Origin: a virus
Taxonomy: Duplodnaviria; Heunggongvirae; Uroviricota; Caudoviricetes
Virus record (IMG/VR): IMGVR_UViG_2695420817_000020
Length of the DNA stretch: 27,945 nucleotides
Reading direction: 5' to 3' (one strand)
Below, piece by piece: positions 14,450-27,569 of the stretch. The notes beneath the pieces were generated by a model, which was not told the DNA's origin, did not search any database, and was given only the letters and a program-made list of their open reading frames with translations. Position numbers and translations under genes: made by a program. The first letter of the stretch is position 1. The number at the start of each line of letters is the position of its first letter.

Positions 14450-14598
14450 CGGCTGAATACCTCACTGATCGCTTCTTTGACTGCGCCAGCTACTGGCGCA
14501 TTAATCCTTTCGAATTGCTGAATATGCCGATCAGTGAAATTCCCTTACTGGTCAGTCAGGCAAACAGGATAGAGCAGGAGAAACGCACACATGGCTGA
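14416..14598 (+). CDS. Frameshift extension of the tail chaperone (GT-like; reached by -1 frameshift, no independent start expected)
   Basis: The -1 frame is open from the slippery site to 14598 and overlaps the tape-measure start. Confidence 0.5.
   Translation: MACGWFFPPGLTAEYLTDRFFDCASYWRINPFELLNMPISEIPLLVSQANRIEQEKRTHG
14431..14437 (+). other. Programmed -1 ribosomal frameshift slippery site T_TTT_TTC
   Basis: In the zero frame the codons are GGT TTT TTC. The heptamer fits X_XXY_YYZ, and the -1 frame continues open for 56 codons. Confidence 0.55.
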
Positions 14599-16423
14599 AT
14601 TTGAGCTTAAGGCGTTGATCACCGGTGTCGACAGGCTTTCTCCCGCGCTGTCGAAAATGCAAAAGAAAATCCGGGGATTTAAACGCCAGGCGGAAGAAGC
14701 GTCACAGGGTGGGCTGGCGCTTGGGGGCGGACTGGCAGCGGGTCTGACGCTTTCCCTGAAATCTTATGCCGATCAGGAAAACGCCGCCACCGGGCTGAAA
14801 GTCGCCATGATGGATGCGAACGGCGAGGTTGGAAAGAGCTTTCAGGACATCAATAAACTGGCTATTGGCCTGGGTAACCAGCTACCTGGTACAACGGCTG
14901 ATTTCCAGAACATGATGCAGATGCTGGTGCGTCAGGGGATCCCGGCAGAAAACATTCTGGGTGGTGTGGGTAAAGCGACAGCTTATCTTGCGGTACAACT
15001 GAAAAAAACACCGGAAGCGGCTGCTGAGTTTGCTGCAAAGATGCAGGATGCTACCGGAACGGCGTCAGAAGACATGATGGGGCTGTTCGACACTATCCAG
15101 AAGGCGTTTTATCTGGGCGTTGACGATACCAACATGTTGTCCTTCTTCACTAAAACCAGTTCTGTTCTGAAGATGGTGAACAAGGATGGTCTTCAGGCTG
15201 CACAGAGCCTTGCCCCCATCAGCGTCATGATGGATCAGATGGGGATGAACGGGGAGTCGGCAGGTAATGCCCTGCGAAAAGTTATCCAGTCCGGATTAAG
15301 CGTTAAGAAAATCAGGGACGTTAATAAAGTTATGGCCCGCCAGAAACTCGGGGTACAGCTCGATTTTACTGACGGCAAAGGAAGTTTTGGCGGTCTTGAT
15401 AACATGTTCAGGCAACTGGCAAAGCTGCGAAAACTGACCGACGTTAAGCGAACAGGTGTACTTAAGGCAATATTTGGTGATGATGCCGAAACCCTTCAGG
15501 TGGTCAATGCACTAATCGATAAAGGAAAGGATGGCTACGATCAGATCCAGCAGAAGATGAATAAACAGGCCAGCCTGAATAAACGTGTTCAGGCACAGCT
15601 TGGTACGCTGTCCAACCTGTGGGAGGCAATGACAGGGACCGCAACTAACGGCCTTGCGGCTATTGGCGGCGCATTTTCTGGTGACGCTAAAAATATCACA
15701 CAATGGCTGGGGGAGTTGGGGGAGAAATTCACGAAGTTTGCGGATGAAAATCCCCGGGTTATTCGCGGCGTCGTCGGGCTTGCTGCCGGTCTTGCGATTC
15801 TGAAACTGGGATTGATGGGCGTGGGCAGTGCCATCAGTATTGTCAGCAGGATTATGTCGATGACGCCGATTGGCATGATTGCGACGGCGATTGCTCTGGC
15901 TGCGGGATTAATTATCACTAACTGGGATGTTGTCGGACCTTATTTCAAGAAGCTCTGGGAAACCATTGGTCCTTATTTTGAGGCAGGTTGGGAACTTCTG
16001 AAGAAGGTTTTTGCCTGGTCGCCGCTGGGGATGGTGATCAATAACTGGGGACCGGTTGTTAAGTGGTTTCAGGATATGTGGGACAAGCTGAAGCCAATTA
16101 TTGAGTGGTTTACCGACAGTTCCGGTGACACGGTCGATGCCATTAACTCTGCGCAGTGGGGCGCGGGTGCTTATGATGCTTATGGGACGGGAATACCGGC
16201 GCGGGGATACACACCTTATCCGGCGGTGGATCCGGCTCAGTCAAACAACGCCTCCGATGCCACAGGCTCGAATCCCTTCATGATTAACAAAGCTTCTGTG
16301 CCAAAAGTTGATGGTGAGATCAAGGTATCTTTTGTGAATTCGCCTCCGGGTATGCGGGTTATGGAAACGCGATCCAGCGGTTTTGATGTCAGCCATGATG
16401 TTGGCTATACGCGGTTCAGGTAG
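14591..16423 (+). CDS. Tail tape measure protein
   Basis: 610 aa, Ala/Gly-rich with hydrophobic C-terminal segments. Follows the chaperone pair. Confidence 0.85.
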   Translation: MAEFELKALITGVDRLSPALSKMQKKIRGFKRQAEEASQGGLALGGGLAAGLTLSLKSYADQENAATGLKVAMMDANGEVGKSFQDINKLAIGLGNQLPGTTADFQNMMQMLVRQGIPAENILGGVGKATAYLAVQLKKTPEAAAEFAAKMQDATGTASEDMMGLFDTIQKAFYLGVDDTNMLSFFTKTSSVLKMVNKDGLQAAQSLAPISVMMDQMGMNGESAGNALRKVIQSGLSVKKIRDVNKVMARQKLGVQLDFTDGKGSFGGLDNMFRQLAKLRKLTDVKRTGVLKAIFGDDAETLQVVNALIDKGKDGYDQIQQKMNKQASLNKRVQAQLGTLSNLWEAMTGTATNGLAAIGGAFSGDAKNITQWLGELGEKFTKFADENPRVIRGVVGLAAGLAILKLGLMGVGSAISIVSRIMSMTPIGMIATAIALAAGLIITNWDVVGPYFKKLWETIGPYFEAGWELLKKVFAWSPLGMVINNWGPVVKWFQDMWDKLKPIIEWFTDSSGDTVDAINSAQWGAGAYDAYGTGIPARGYTPYPAVDPAQSNNASDATGSNPFMINKASVPKVDGEIKVSFVNSPPGMRVMETRSSGFDVSHDVGYTRFR

Positions 16424-16522
16424 TGTACAAAATGATTAATGTGTTTTTGTCTGGCATAATTTGGGTTTTCAGCTTTAAGTAGTTAATATAATCATTCCTT
16501 ACAAATGATTGAAGGGATGATT

Positions 16523-17017
16523 ATGCGTATCTTTGTTTTTTTTATATCTGCACTTTTATCTTTTAACTTGGCTGCGGAAGAGTGTAAGTTCAGCTTTAAT
16601 GAGTCAGAATTAATCTCTTCTATAGGTATTGCACCAGTTAAGCAAGAGATAATAAAGGATGAAGGAATAACTAAGCGGCAATATGAATTCAGAAGAGAAT
16701 TATCTTCTGAAGAAATGCTTAGTGATGACGCTGATGAAAAATATGAGCCGCAGTTTTATATATCTGTTTATAATCCATCATGCCCACAAAAGGTTATTGT
16801 TTGGTTTTTCAAAGACAATAAAAACACAATGGATTTAAGTAATGAGGTCCTTGCTGGTAGAGCGTTCAAATATTTAACTGGTGTTAATGAAAGTATTTTT
16901 GAAAATAAAATGAAAAAGTTTTTAAAGGTACAGTCATTTGAATCTTTTGATGAAAGGACAGATTCTAAATTTATAAAGAGTGGTGATATTTATTCCATTG
17001 ATGTTCAACTCAGATAG
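16523..17017 (+). CDS. Hypothetical secreted/periplasmic protein (moron) with N-terminal signal peptide
   Basis: AAGGGA RBS before ATG 16523. N-terminus MRIFVFFISALLSFNLAAEE is signal-peptide-like. Codon usage strongly A+T-rich, unlike the flanking tail genes. The tracked ORF starts at 16505. Confidence 0.6.
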   Translation: MRIFVFFISALLSFNLAAEECKFSFNESELISSIGIAPVKQEIIKDEGITKRQYEFRRELSSEEMLSDDADEKYEPQFYISVYNPSCPQKVIVWFFKDNKNTMDLSNEVLAGRAFKYLTGVNESIFENKMKKFLKVQSFESFDERTDSKFIKSGDIYSIDVQLR

Positions 17018-17036
17018 TAATTAAAAATATTAGGTT

Positions 17037-17092
17037 CCCGCCACATCTTCTGCGATGTAAATAACTGACAAAGCAGATTTGGCGGGTTTTTT
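17037..17092 (+). terminator. Imperfect long hairpin plus T6; putative terminator of the moron
   Basis: CCCGCC...(loop)...GGCGGG with internal ATCT/GCAGAT pairing, followed by TTTTTT at 17087-17092. Confidence 0.4.
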
Positions 17093-17107
17093 GTATCCGG
17101 AGTTTAT

Positions 17108-18436
17108 ATGACGTGGAAAGACAGGCTTCAGGATGCGTCATTTCGCGGCGTACCGTTTAAGGTTGAAGAAGAAAGTGCGGGAACCGGTCGCCGTGTGGAA
17201 ACACATGAATACCCGAACCGCGACAAGCCCTATACCGAAGATCTGGGAAAAGTCACTTTCCGCCCGTCCATCACAGCTTATGTGGTGGGAGATGACTGCT
17301 TTGACCAGCGCGATCGCCTGATTGACGCGCTGAATAAACCCGGTCCCGGCACGCTTGTCCACCCGACATATGGTGAGCTGAAAGTCTGTGTTGACGGGGA
17401 AGTTCGGGTCAGCACATCGAAAAGTGAAGGGCGTATTGTCCGCTTTGACCTGAAGTTTGTCGAAGCAGGAGAACTCTCTTACCCCACATCAGGTGCGGCG
17501 ACGGCGCAGACGCTGATGTCATCCTGTTCTGCACTGGATGACTGCATCAGTGACAGCTTCAGCGGTTTCAGTATCGATGGTGTGGCGGATTTCGTGCAGA
17601 ACGACGTTATCGGTAATGCCAGCATAATGCTGGGGTATGTTTCTGATGCGATGAAAGTGGTGGATTCTGCCGTATCGGATGCCGCCAGGCTGTTGCAGGG
17701 GGATATCTCGGTACTTCTGCCGCCGCCATCGTCAGGCAAAAATTTCGTTGAGCAGGTGCAGAAAATGTGGCGTACCGGGAAACGCCTTTATGGTAACGCC
17801 AGCGACCTGGTCACCATGATCAAAACGCTTTCCGGTGTCAGCCTCGGCAGCGATCTGCAACCGCGCGGCGTCTGGAAAACGGACAGTAAAACCACCGCCA
17901 CGGCGACGCAGCAGCGTAACGTGGTTGCCAGCACCCTTCGTACGACCGCAATCAGCGAAGCGGCGTATGCCGTCACCCGATTGCCTGCGCCAACAACTTC
18001 CGCGGTGATGCAGAATTCCGCAGTGGGGCAGGCAACAACACCCGCGCAGAGCACTGGCTGGCCTTCCGTCACGCATCCGGCACTGAACAATGCACCGGCG
18101 GTGAAAAACACGGTTGACCTGCCGACGTGGGAAGAACTGACTGACATTCGCGACACACTGAATACGGCAATTGATAAGGAGTTGTCCCGTACAACCAGCG
18201 ATGCGCTGTTTCTGGCGCTGCGCCGGGTGAAAGCAGATCTGAATGCGGATATCAACACGCGCCTTGAACAGTCTGCACGGATCATTCAGCGCACACCGGA
18301 TGAGGTTTTACCCGCGCTGGTGCTGGCGGCGACCTGGTTTGATAACGCGGCGCGTGACGCGGACATTATCCGGCGTAATGCCATTACGCATCCCGGCTTT
18401 GTGCCGGTGATCCCTCTGAAGGTGCCAGTGCAATGA
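17108..18436 (+). CDS. DNA circulation protein (Mu gpN-like)
   Basis: 442 aa. N-terminus MTWKDRLQDASFRGVPF... resembles Mu N family proteins. Lies between tape measure and baseplate genes. Confidence 0.8.
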   Translation: MTWKDRLQDASFRGVPFKVEEESAGTGRRVETHEYPNRDKPYTEDLGKVTFRPSITAYVVGDDCFDQRDRLIDALNKPGPGTLVHPTYGELKVCVDGEVRVSTSKSEGRIVRFDLKFVEAGELSYPTSGAATAQTLMSSCSALDDCISDSFSGFSIDGVADFVQNDVIGNASIMLGYVSDAMKVVDSAVSDAARLLQGDISVLLPPPSSGKNFVEQVQKMWRTGKRLYGNASDLVTMIKTLSGVSLGSDLQPRGVWKTDSKTTATATQQRNVVASTLRTTAISEAAYAVTRLPAPTTSAVMQNSAVGQATTPAQSTGWPSVTHPALNNAPAVKNTVDLPTWEELTDIRDTLNTAIDKELSRTTSDALFLALRRVKADLNADINTRLEQSARIIQRTPDEVLPALVLAATWFDNAARDADIIRRNAITHPGFVPVIPLKVPVQ

Positions 18437-24328: not shown

Positions 24329-24892
24329 ATGATTTACGGGTATGTTCGTGTATCAACAAATCATCAGGATACAGAGTTGCAACGTCTTGCACTTGAGTCA
24401 GCTGGCTGTGAGCGAATTTATGAAGAATATGCCAGTGGCAGAACAGCTAATCGCCCTGTGTTAAAGGAATTAATTACGGTGATGAAAAGTGGAGATGAGT
24501 TGATTGTCTGGAAGTTAGATCGGATAGGGAGAAATGTGCTGCATGCGCTATTGATGTTTCAAAATCTGCACGAAAAAGGTGTTAATTTTCGGAGTATTAC
24601 AGATGGCGTAGACCTGAAAACAGCAAGTGGTCGCTATAATTTCCGTAATATTCTTTCTGCTGCGCAGTATGAATCTGATTTGAATAGCGAGCGAACTTTA
24701 GCTGGTTTGGCTATTGCCAGATCCAAAGGCCGGATTGGTGGGCGTAGACCGAAGTTTAGCGACGAGCAGTGGCAACAGATGGGAGCGCTCATAGCGGCAG
24801 GGAAATCACGGCGTTATGTTGCACGTATCTATAACGTTGGGCTATCAACCCTATATAAACGATTTCCTGTTACTGGCATTCAAACGAAATAA
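24329..24892 (+). CDS. Site-specific DNA invertase, serine recombinase (Pin/Gin/Hin family)
   Basis: 187 aa. N-terminal catalytic motif YVRVST, ...WKLDRIGR..., C-terminal helix-turn-helix (LSTLYKRF). Adjacent to the invertible tail-fibre segment. Confidence 0.9.
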   Translation: MIYGYVRVSTNHQDTELQRLALESAGCERIYEEYASGRTANRPVLKELITVMKSGDELIVWKLDRIGRNVLHALLMFQNLHEKGVNFRSITDGVDLKTASGRYNFRNILSAAQYESDLNSERTLAGLAIARSKGRIGGRRPKFSDEQWQQMGALIAAGKSRRYVARIYNVGLSTLYKRFPVTGIQTK

Positions 24893-25297: not shown

Positions 25298-25349
25298 TAC
25301 TGTGTTTGTATACAGTATTATTTTTAACTGTATGGATAAACAGTGTCAA
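25298..25349 (-). promoter_or_regulatory. SOS promoter with two LexA boxes upstream of the DinI-like gene
   Basis: TACTGTgtttgtatACAGTA (25298-25317) and aCTGTatggataaACAGt (25327-25344), both CTGT-N8-ACAG. On the minus strand a perfect TTGACA -35 lies at 25344-25349. Confidence 0.7.
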
Positions 25350-26443
25350 GAGGTCTTATTTCTGCTCCTTTGGAGCTCTTCAAAACGATTATGTAAAGAT
25401 TTCGGATACAGTTCGGTATATACCTGCCATAGCACGTTTAATGAACGATGCCCTGTAACCTGGGCGACTTCCTCAATACTAAAACCAGCCTCAAATAAGC
25501 GACTTGCCCCTTCTCTACGCAAATCATGGTATCGCAGATCTTTAATACCTAATTTGCTTCTTACCCTCTGGAATCCCGCAGTAACAGAAGTGCTGTTATA
25601 TGGAAAAATGAATTCTGATTTTTTGGGTTGTCGTTGGACGATATCCCAGGCTTCCCCAAGCAAGGCTACTTTCATATGGTTGCCTTCCTTTTTACGTGGA
25701 TCTTTCCTGTCTCTTACGAGTATGGATTTTTGTTCCTGATCGAGATCCTCCCATCGTAATCGGCATACTTCACCGATTCGCATACATGACCACACAGAAA
25801 ATTTGAGGATATCAACGAACGGAATTTTTGAGCATTTATGTGTAGATCGTTGTTGAAGACCTTCAATGAGCATGTCCAGTTCATCAGATGCCGGTCTACG
25901 ATTACGACGATTTGATTTACCAATTAAACCAAGTTTAAGTAGATATGGACGAGCGGCTTTTGCTGGGTTTGATGTGTAATTAATTCCATATACAGGTTTG
26001 GCAGCATCCAGAACACTGCCAAGATAACTAACATCGTGGCTAACTGTAGCTGGACCTGCACCAGCGTTGTTTCTTAGCCTGCAATGTTCAATTACGTCAT
26101 TTTCTGTCAGTTCAGATAGTTTGATCGCGGAGATGTCACTATCCATAAGCAGTTCCAGCACATATCTTTTAGTACGGCCTGCTTTACCTCCGGCATTTGG
26201 GTCATTTAAATATTTGTGTAGTAAGTCACGGACTGTAAGTCCGTCAACTGCATTTGATGATGGAATGCCATATAGATCTAATTCCATCACTTTCTGTGTG
26301 CCCCATGTTTTGGCATGAGCATGTTTAGGGAATGTTTTGCTTTCCCTGTAAGTGATAACACCTTTTTCTTTGATAATCACATTACAGCGATAGCGTGGTG
26401 TGCCATCGGATTTTAGTCGTTTCTCTATGTTATAGTACGCCAT
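25346..26443 (-). CDS. Tyrosine-type phage integrase (dusA-associated)
   Basis: 365 aa. C-terminal catalytic region (...YHDLRREGASR...GHRSLNVLWQVYTELY). GAGG RBS. Divergent from dusA, 88 bp away. Confidence 0.9.
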   Translation of the reverse strand: MAYYNIEKRLKSDGTPRYRCNVIIKEKGVITYRESKTFPKHAHAKTWGTQKVMELDLYGIPSSNAVDGLTVRDLLHKYLNDPNAGGKAGRTKRYVLELLMDSDISAIKLSELTENDVIEHCRLRNNAGAGPATVSHDVSYLGSVLDAAKPVYGINYTSNPAKAARPYLLKLGLIGKSNRRNRRPASDELDMLIEGLQQRSTHKCSKIPFVDILKFSVWSCMRIGEVCRLRWEDLDQEQKSILVRDRKDPRKKEGNHMKVALLGEAWDIVQRQPKKSEFIFPYNSTSVTAGFQRVRSKLGIKDLRYHDLRREGASRLFEAGFSIEEVAQVTGHRSLNVLWQVYTELYPKSLHNRFEELQRSRNKTS

Positions 26444-26531: not shown

Positions 26532-27569
26532 ATGCACGATAATCATGAAACACAAAAAATTAATCAAACCAGCGTGATGCCTGAAAAAACTGGTGTTTAC
26601 TGGAATTCTCGGTTTAGCATTGCTCCTATGCTTGACTGGACGGACAGACATTGCCGTTATTTCCTGCGTCTGCTTTCCCGCAATACGTTGCTGTATACCG
26701 AAATGGTGACCACAGGGGCGATTATTCACGGTAAAGGTGATTACCTGGCGTACAGTGAAGAAGAACATCCGGTAGCGTTGCAACTCGGGGGTAGCGATCC
26801 GGCGGCGCTGGCACAGTGTGCGAAGCTGGCAGAAGCGCGTGGATATGATGAGATCAACCTGAATGTCGGCTGCCCGTCTGACCGGGTGCAGAACGGCATG
26901 TTTGGTGCGTGTCTGATGGGTAATGCGCAGCTGGTTGCCGACTGCGTGAAAGCGATGCGCGATGTGGTGTCGATTCCGGTGACGGTGAAAACGCGTATTG
27001 GCATCGATGATCAGGACAGCTATGAATTTCTCTGCGATTTCATCAACACCGTTTCCGGCAAAGGTGAGTGTGAGATGTTCATCATCCACGCACGTAAAGC
27101 CTGGCTTTCTGGGTTAAGTCCGAAAGAAAACCGTGAGATCCCGCCTCTCGATTATCCGCGTGTGTATCAACTGAAGCGTGACTTTCCGCATCTGACGATG
27201 TCGATTAACGGTGGTATCAAGTCGCTGGAAGAAGCTAAAGCGCATTTGCAACATATGGATGGCGTGATGGTCGGGCGCGAGGCGTATCAGAATCCGGGTA
27301 TTCTGGCGGCGGTAGACCGAGAGATTTTTGGTTCCTCGGATACTGATGCTGATCCGGTGGCGGTAGTGCGCGCCATGTATCCGTACATTGAGCGTGAACT
27401 CAGCCAGGGTACGTATCTCGGCCATATTACCCGGCATATGCTGGGCTTGTTCCAGGGTATTCCTGGCGCGCGGCAGTGGCGGCGTTATTTAAGTGAAAAT
27501 GCCCATAAAGCGGGTGCAGACATTAATGTGCTGGAACACGCGCTCAAACTGGTGGCGGATAAGCGTTAA
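26532..27569 (+). CDS. dusA: tRNA-dihydrouridine synthase A
   Basis: 345 aa, TIM-barrel Dus motifs, near-identical over most of its length to E. coli DusA as I recall it. Followed by pspG as in E. coli. Confidence 0.9.

Follow-up and report, generated by a model that had tools for sequence, protein, structure and literature searches.

We find that a low-G+C segment in the tail operon of an SfV-like prophage is an optional cargo cassette, or moron, lodged in a recombination-prone slot between the tail tape-measure gene and the DNA-circulation gene. The prophage makes up the IMG/VR virus record IMGVR_UViG_2695420817_000020, a stretch of 27,945 nucleotides (nt) that was analysed whole and is referred to here as the window. 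Its gene order is terminase, a Mu-type contractile tail, tail fibres, a DNA invertase and an integrase, the last of which abuts the host gene dusA, where the prophage appears to be integrated. The segment, positions 16424 to 17107, is precisely the gap between the two tail genes, and the only open reading frame (ORF) of at least 60 amino acids (aa) within it lies on the plus strand. The gene, which encodes a 164-aa protein, is a real but fairly ordinary moron whose product most likely acts at the envelope; superinfection exclusion is our tentative proposal for what it does.

An optional cargo gene in the tape-measure/DNA-circulation slot

A sequence-only reading of the window had singled out this region by eye for its low G+C content, and measurement bears that out. 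In 300-bp intervals, G+C is 0.29-0.33 over positions 16450-17050 compared to 0.49-0.62 in intervals clear of the insert. The ORF itself, at 0.311, is the lowest 500-bp stretch of the 27.9-kb window and lies about 3.9 standard deviations under the rest, with the flanking genes at 0.52-0.56 and the remainder of the window at 0.52. The 164-aa frame and the good ribosome-binding site (RBS) noted in the same reading also hold: a Shine-Dalgarno sequence, AAGGGA, occupies 16512-16517, 5 nt before the start codon. This start is correct, because the RefSeq annotation, a full-length match to PHROG 8976 (residues 1-164 to positions 1-164 of 164, expectation value [E] 2.8e-107) and homologues starting at the same residue all agree on it.

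Every database name for the protein is ‘hypothetical protein’, as one would expect of a spurious ORF in an A+T-rich spacer or of a non-functional passenger. The conservation pattern is of another kind. Between two E. coli alleles of the gene, the window copy and WP_001219113.1 (95.6% identical in DNA), the ratio of non-synonymous to synonymous substitution rates (dN/dS) is 0.18. An alignment of 13 sequences at 55-66% identity keeps 39 invariant columns, homologues span 28-66% identity and can be recognised in the same slot down to the lower figure, and the protein yields a confident three-dimensional model (see below). We regard the passenger or spurious-ORF reading, to which we give next to no credence, as refuted by this pattern of sequence conservation.

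The comparison with related prophages lacking the insert, suggested by the sequence-only reading, gave a clear answer. The phages SfV, SfII, SfI and vB_EcoM-689R6 have flanks 96-97% identical to those in the window and lack about 620 bp; SfIV also has an empty slot without the gene. In SfII, the tape-measure and DNA-circulation genes are 60 nt apart, with an annotated terminator between them. Among 5,426 complete E. coli genomes, the 164-aa gene was found in 85 and the flanking tail genes were matched in 1,094, and in 84 of the 85 carriers the gene and both flanks fell within one match. E. coli strain 104 and two more poultry isolates carry an identical copy of the region, and in phage SKA5 it is 98.9% identical. 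The slot gains and loses the gene by recombination against nearly identical flanks. Two features of a moron in the sense of Juhala et al. (2000), presence or absence between collinear relatives and distinct base composition, are seen here. The gene is therefore not a conserved structural component of all related tails, an outcome that the sequence-only reading had named as counting against cargo, since infectious relatives do without it; nor was there, among Pfam and PHROG families, the clear match to a known tail protein that it had named alongside.

In a spread sample of matching genomes, the same slot of other E. coli strains was occupied by four other genes, unrelated and likewise low in G+C (0.35-0.42) (Table 1). 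An envelope-targeting N-terminus, read from the translations, is present in four of the five cargo types including the 164-aa gene, and the OB-fold cargo matches PHROG 8545, “superinfection exclusion Sie-like” (E 1.5e-49). The genome numbers in Table 1 count each gene anywhere in the 5,426 complete E. coli genomes, with slot position confirmed only in the fetched examples. The firmer result of this work is the hotspot: at least five interchangeable low-G+C genes can stand at the tape-measure/DNA-circulation junction of SfV-like prophages. Together these are found in several hundred of the 5,426 genomes and offer a small group of exclusion or conversion candidates that lends itself to testing. 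PHROG 8976 and a RefSeq “hypothetical protein” entry already list the gene; the papers searched contain no mention of WP_001219112 or of a hotspot at this junction.

Table 1. Features of the slot and its surroundings, with the alternative cargos; positions are those of the window unless preceded by the number of another locus (L).
Feature	Position	Strand	Basis or remarks
Tail tape-measure gene, left slot border	14591..16423	+	PF10145 PhageMin_Tail, E 9.8e-27; RefSeq ‘phage tail tape measure protein’
5' spacer, 99 nt, A+T-rich; putative promoter only	16424..16522	+	Two -10-like elements, no -35 match
5' RNA hairpin pairing the TATAAT region with the Shine-Dalgarno sequence and start codon	16487..16525	+	Inverted repeat, fold
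Coding sequence and slot cargo, 164 aa plus stop, WP_001219112.1	16523..17017	+	PHROG 8976 (function unknown); RefSeq, profile match, family alignment, dN/dS, model; signal peptide; 85 E. coli genomes
Predicted signal peptide, residues 1-18 (MRIFVFFISALLSFNLAA, then EEC)	16523..16576	+	Arg2, hydrophobic core, Ala at -1, no lipobox
Terminator-like hairpin, 15-nt arms, 20-nt loop, then T6	17037..17092	+	Slot feature; also L001:1939-1977 and the 3' spacers of L004, L008, L010, L013, L016, L017, L019-L021, L024 and L026
DNA-circulation gene (Mu gp43/N-like), right slot border	17108..18436	+	PF07157 DNA_circ_N, E 2.9e-34
Slot cargo, 176 aa	L016:816-1346	same strand	N-terminal membrane anchor, PHROG 5485; 178 genomes
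Slot cargo, 125 aa	L017:900-1277	same strand	bPH_1 domain; 28 genomes
Slot cargo, 148 aa	L018:756-1202	- (opposite)	Membrane-anchored OB-fold PF12869, PHROG 8545; 72 genomes
Slot cargo, 225 aa	L019:815-1492, L020:754-1431	same strand	Lipoprotein, PHROG 1353; 55 genomes

The family of the 164-aa protein is small: it accounts for about 20 of the 90%-identity clusters in a set of 5.8 billion proteins and for 12 of the 50%-identity clusters in one of 1.84 billion, and exhaustive profile searches for distant relatives returned only about 20 clusters, all within the same family. Named members are all from Enterobacterales (Escherichia, Shigella, Salmonella, Kluyvera, Kosakonia, Atlantibacter, Pantoea and several Yersinia species). 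All prophage copies examined, among them those of Escherichia, Kluyvera, Kosakonia, Atlantibacter, Pantoea and Yersinia, and whether fetched individually or taken from IMG/VR and GTDB loci, sit between tape-measure and DNA-circulation genes; 47 of 47 IMG/VR and GTDB loci agree with the slot as far as their contigs reach, with both flanking genes visible in 45. Relative to the window copy, identities of the 164-aa, tape-measure and DNA-circulation proteins are 61%, 79% and 77% in a metagenomic relative (L004), 59%, 81% and 75% in Kosakonia (L008), 40%, 63% and 56% in Pantoea phage AH07 (L010), and 28%, 59% and 45% in a further metagenomic relative (L013). Divergence therefore follows the same rank order in the 164-aa protein as in the neighbouring tail genes. 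The protein evolves faster than the whole tape-measure or DNA-circulation proteins, at a rate similar to that of the C-terminal 200 residues of the tape measure (57-63% identity for the 164-aa protein and 47-58% for the tape-measure C-terminus in diverged IMG/VR and GTDB loci).

Low G+C is found in all lineages, with the gene at 0.31-0.42 and the flanking genes or locus at 0.47-0.57, and is kept even in homologues at 28-42% identity; A+T-richness is a maintained property of the gene. The sequence-only reading had taken the composition, together with the other features of the segment, as the signature of horizontally acquired cargo. The accessory nature of the gene stands, but recent foreign import does not: the gene is a long-standing optional resident of the slot in Enterobacterales, because its slot is constant, its divergence parallels that of the tail and its low G+C persists. 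More generally, low G+C in a moron can be stable and long kept, and is no proof of recent foreign origin.

A distant homologue of 156 aa (L011:8001-8471, also L012:6657-7127; 32% identity) lies outside any prophage, directly downstream of a pertactin-type autotransporter, with G+C of 0.37 compared to 0.52; it has neither a signal peptide nor the first conserved cysteine and may be a decayed or repurposed copy. In IMGVR_UViG_2541047957_000005, which is otherwise 98% identical, the gap to the DNA-circulation gene is 241 nt rather than 93 nt and the match to the 164-aa protein is shortened at the N-terminus. Between its DNA-circulation and gpP baseplate genes, an Atlantibacter prophage carries two additional genes, of 506 aa and 93 aa, neither of which matches Pfam (L024:5980-7778); this is a second variable junction of the same tail module.

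The encoded protein

The N-terminus of the 164-aa protein has the layout of a Sec-type signal peptide, shared by 14 of 15 family members, with a maximum Kyte-Doolittle hydropathy over ten residues of 3.0. The sequence-only reading had recognised the signal and placed cleavage one residue earlier, before AEE. The signal itself is well supported, but the likely site is LAA/EEC, after residue 18 rather than 17: small residues occupy -3 and -1, Ala18 is nearly invariant across the family, and the Ala at -1 precedes E-E/Q-C. No lipobox ([LVI][ASTVI][GAS]C) was found in any of the 15 family members. From this signal peptide without a lipobox, we infer that the 164-aa precursor is exported by Sec and cleaved after Ala18. 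The mature chain of about 146 aa is acidic (isoelectric point about 4.9) and is predicted to be a soluble periplasmic protein of about 17 kDa. The family alignment has two invariant cysteines, C21 and C87, which would probably form a disulfide in the periplasm.

The absence of a recognisable domain, remarked on in the sequence-only reading, was borne out by the searches. Pfam, NCBIfam and PADLOC (PADLOC-DB 2.0) scans gave no match to the protein even at E 10, searches of PDB by sequence (single-sequence and profile) gave noise only, and no tail-protein family in Pfam or PHROGs matched. By hhalign, no relationship was detected to P1 SimC or to two of the alternative slot cargos, and T4 Imm, T4 Spackle, SieB, P1 SimC, Bor and Lom, as represented in Pfam, PDB or by reference sequences, showed no sequence or fold similarity to the protein. 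An AlphaFold2 model built from the family alignment is mixed alpha/beta, with a mean predicted local distance difference test score (pLDDT) of 88 and a predicted template modelling score of 0.80, and is of low confidence at the signal peptide only (pLDDT <55, residues 1-20). Foldseek found no match to this model in PDB at E ≤0.001; DcrB and RseB, which appeared as weak Foldseek matches, were rejected as fold relatives (TM-scores ≤0.3). The structure searches proposed in the sequence-only reading thus returned no solved fold, but they did yield a single structural neighbour in BFVD: A0A8S5RVB8, a 180-aa protein of Siphoviridae sp. ctLeG9 from a human-gut virome (Foldseek E 7e-6, TM-score 0.63, 13% identity). 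The automatic name that it bears, “ABC transporter periplasmic binding protein”, is hard to credit in a protein of that size and was disregarded.

Putative promoter and RNA hairpins flanking the gene

The 5' spacer holds two -10-like elements, an extended -10 type (TGgCATAAT, 16452-16460) and the TATAAT (16487-16492) that the sequence-only reading had noted in the segment's own upstream region, and both are identical in the second allele. The hexamer is there, but its promoter status did not gain support: a consensus promoter scan called no plus-strand sigma-70 site in the spacer, and no -35 match was found. By eye, -10-like boxes are also present in the spacers of the other E. coli slot cargos. 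The A+T-rich 5' spacer measures 72-134 nt in E. coli, whose copy has -10-like boxes, in Kosakonia and in one metagenomic relative. No more than 10-16 nt and an RBS lie between the tape-measure stop and the gene in Pantoea phage AH07, a metagenomic relative and Yersinia, a gap that leaves no room for a promoter. In the window, a promoter of the gene's own within the 99-nt spacer is plausible.

The same spacer can fold into a 5' RNA hairpin (-17.5 kcal/mol, z -3.8; none of 200 shuffles as stable) that would sequester the translation start. It does not form on a transcript starting at 16498 and would thus be confined to read-through transcripts from upstream. It is weaker in allele WP_001219113.1 (z -1.3), and no equivalent was seen by eye at the Atlantibacter locus. 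As a lead from predicted folding, the hairpin could restrict translation to the cassette's own transcript. That the window's 5' spacer might preserve the SfII terminator in decayed form was considered and rejected, as the match is not significant (90 of 500 shuffles scored as high); the Kosakonia locus has an 11-nt exact remnant of that terminator (5 of 500 shuffles).

Downstream of the gene, the hairpin and T-run described in the sequence-only reading are present (arms 17037-17051 and 17072-17086, T6 at 17087-17092; -21.2 kcal/mol, z -4.0), but they are not specific to the insert. A hairpin with a T-run stands directly before the DNA-circulation RBS in all forward-strand cargo variants and homologues examined and in the empty slot of SfII; it is absent from the empty slot of SfIV and from the reverse-strand OB-fold variant. 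The hairpin is G+C-rich, often CCCGCTTCGGCGGGTTTTTTT, and conserved across genera. Because it occurs in empty-slot SfII and with other forward-strand cargos, it belongs to the slot and not to the 164-aa cargo, and it may serve as an internal attenuator between the sheath, tube and tape-measure genes and the baseplate genes. An Rfam scan of the region found nothing.

What the protein might do

T4 Spackle and P1 SimC reach the periplasm through Sec, are processed, and halt infection once the phage has adsorbed; Spackle does so by inhibiting the tail-tip lysozyme. They are the closest functional analogues of what we propose, with P1 sim likewise lying beside a tail operon, but the 164-aa protein is unrelated to them in sequence and fold. 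Our proposal, a tentative one that may well prove wrong, is that the protein is a periplasmic superinfection-exclusion factor of the lysogen. It would act in the lysogen periplasm, where it would bind a component of the envelope or, on an incoming phage, the tail-tip/tape-measure apparatus, and block the step between adsorption and DNA entry, as Spackle, SimC and HK97 gp15 each do in their own way. In the lysogen, a weak -10-type promoter within the 99-nt spacer would drive its expression, and the RBS-hiding 5' hairpin may limit translation from late read-through transcripts.

We arrived at exclusion because most slot cargos are envelope-directed, one of them carries the “Sie-like” annotation of PHROG 8545, the gene is tightly linked to the tape-measure gene and evolves at a rate similar to that of the tape-measure C-terminus, and HK97 gp15 offers a precedent. 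The PHROG 8545 protein shares the slot in other SfV-like prophages, the low G+C and the envelope-targeting N-terminus, but the two proteins are unrelated, and the PHROG 8545 protein is encoded on the opposite strand and anchored in the membrane rather than secreted. HK97 gp15 was the first moron described; it adjoins the tape-measure gene and encodes an exclusion protein that blocks DNA entry, with specificity mapping to the tail region (Juhala et al. 2000; Cumby et al. 2012; reviewed in PMC3594210). Like the insert, gp15 is a small accessory gene of the late tail operon beside the tape-measure gene that stands out in base composition and is absent from close relatives. Its product is located in the envelope, as is predicted for the 164-aa protein, and it has a promoter, gene and terminator in a row, an arrangement that is putative in the insert. 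The gp15 product, however, is a small protein of the inner membrane with a relationship to YebO, and its gene precedes the tape-measure gene of a siphovirus, whereas the 164-aa protein (about 146 aa when mature) is predicted to be soluble and periplasmic and is encoded downstream of the tape-measure gene of a contractile Mu-type tail. No sequence relationship connects the two, as judged by the lack of Pfam family matches.

Several observations weigh against exclusion as the role of the protein. The Pfam, PADLOC, PDB (sequence and fold) and hhalign searches linked it to no known exclusion or defence protein, and the “Sie-like” label on the OB-fold cargo is a database annotation, not a demonstrated function. 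The promoter scan of the 5' spacer was empty, and three distant lineages pack the gene 10-16 nt behind the tape-measure gene, which implies transcription with the late operon there unless a promoter lies inside the tape-measure gene. In addition, a second flank-matching locus was present in 11 of 30 carriers among those listed, compared to at most 12.6% of 1,102 matching records, a comparison that ignores strain relatedness and order of acquisition; carriers among those listed with two or three such loci include NZ_CP126931.1 and NZ_CM173879.1. Carriers are thus not depleted of related prophages, which argues against strong exclusion of the phage's own type.

Exported phage proteins can also act on the host surface. 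Cor (phi80 and N15), Llp (T5) and lambda Bor and Lom change the cell surface by blocking receptors or aiding virulence; they are outer-membrane lipoproteins or beta-barrels, unlike the 164-aa protein with its mixed alpha/beta model, no solved neighbour, no lipobox and no Pfam match. An exported protein in a moron slot could be a lysogenic-conversion factor that, like Bor and Lom, changes the properties of the envelope, the resistance to stress or serum, or the ability to colonise, with no anti-phage role. Carriage fits this picture, since the gene is widespread in E. coli, Shigella, Salmonella and Yersinia isolates of animals and humans, many of them from poultry or avian pathogenic E. coli, as does the homologue that lies behind an autotransporter outside any phage. 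We nevertheless consider conversion unlikely: the protein resembles neither Bor nor Lom nor any further Pfam family, strict linkage to the tape-measure and DNA-circulation genes with tail-parallel divergence is unexpected for a generic host-benefit gene, and the chromosomal homologue lacks the signal peptide and first cysteine. Similarly doubtful is a late lytic-cycle accessory protein, made from the tail-operon transcript and acting in the periplasm by receptor masking (like T5 Llp), lytic-cycle exclusion or modulation of lysis. The gene does lie within the late tail operon, on the same strand, at a position conserved in all prophage copies examined, and the tight packing behind the tape-measure stop in AH07, a metagenomic relative and the Yersinia prophages suits co-transcription. 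Nonetheless, infectious SfV, SfII, SfI and SfIV lack it, the A+T-rich spacer of 72-134 nt sets it apart in E. coli, Kosakonia and a metagenomic relative, the stable hairpin in the window would hide the RBS specifically on read-through transcripts, and one alternative cargo lies on the opposite strand and hence outside the late transcript.

A location between two structural genes, conserved across genera, would also be expected of a tail or baseplate component, such as a small tail-tip protein or an assembly chaperone. This is highly improbable, and a structural role in the tail is essentially excluded by the signal peptide together with the absence of the gene from infectious relatives whose flanks are nearly identical. 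An exported product could not join tails assembled in the cytoplasm, and the signal peptide is conserved and predicted to be cleaved. Unrelated proteins, including a lipoprotein and the product of a reverse-strand gene, fill the same slot, and no tail family of Pfam or PHROGs matches.

If exclusion is correct, the protein would join the few factors that act between adsorption and DNA entry, as a soluble periplasmic member whose fold is unrecognised, and would help in studying how contractile Mu-type tails get across the periplasm. A bolder version, which we hold to be improbable, would make it the founder of a new exclusion class: a soluble periplasmic protein, of a fold unseen in solved structures and co-evolving with the Mu-type tape-measure C-terminus, would intercept the tape-measure/tail-tip complex and so block channel formation and DNA entry. 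The junction would then be an Enterobacterales-wide hotspot of envelope-acting anti-phage cargo, and the 5' hairpin a switch permitting translation of the lysogenic transcript only.

Two other regions of the window drew our attention. Positions 3800-4400 form its second-lowest G+C patch (0.38) and contain a 74-aa ORF (4010-4234), flanked by an ORF of 153 aa whose N-terminus is hydrophobic (3281-3742) and a Cys/His-rich ORF of 116 aa (4401-4751); this patch may be another small moron. Toward the right end, a resolvase-type DNA invertase adjoins tail-fibre and tail-fibre-assembly genes and is followed by the tyrosine integrase at dusA (24329-24892, 25346-26443 on the minus strand, and 26532-27569), and an invertible host-range segment is possible there.

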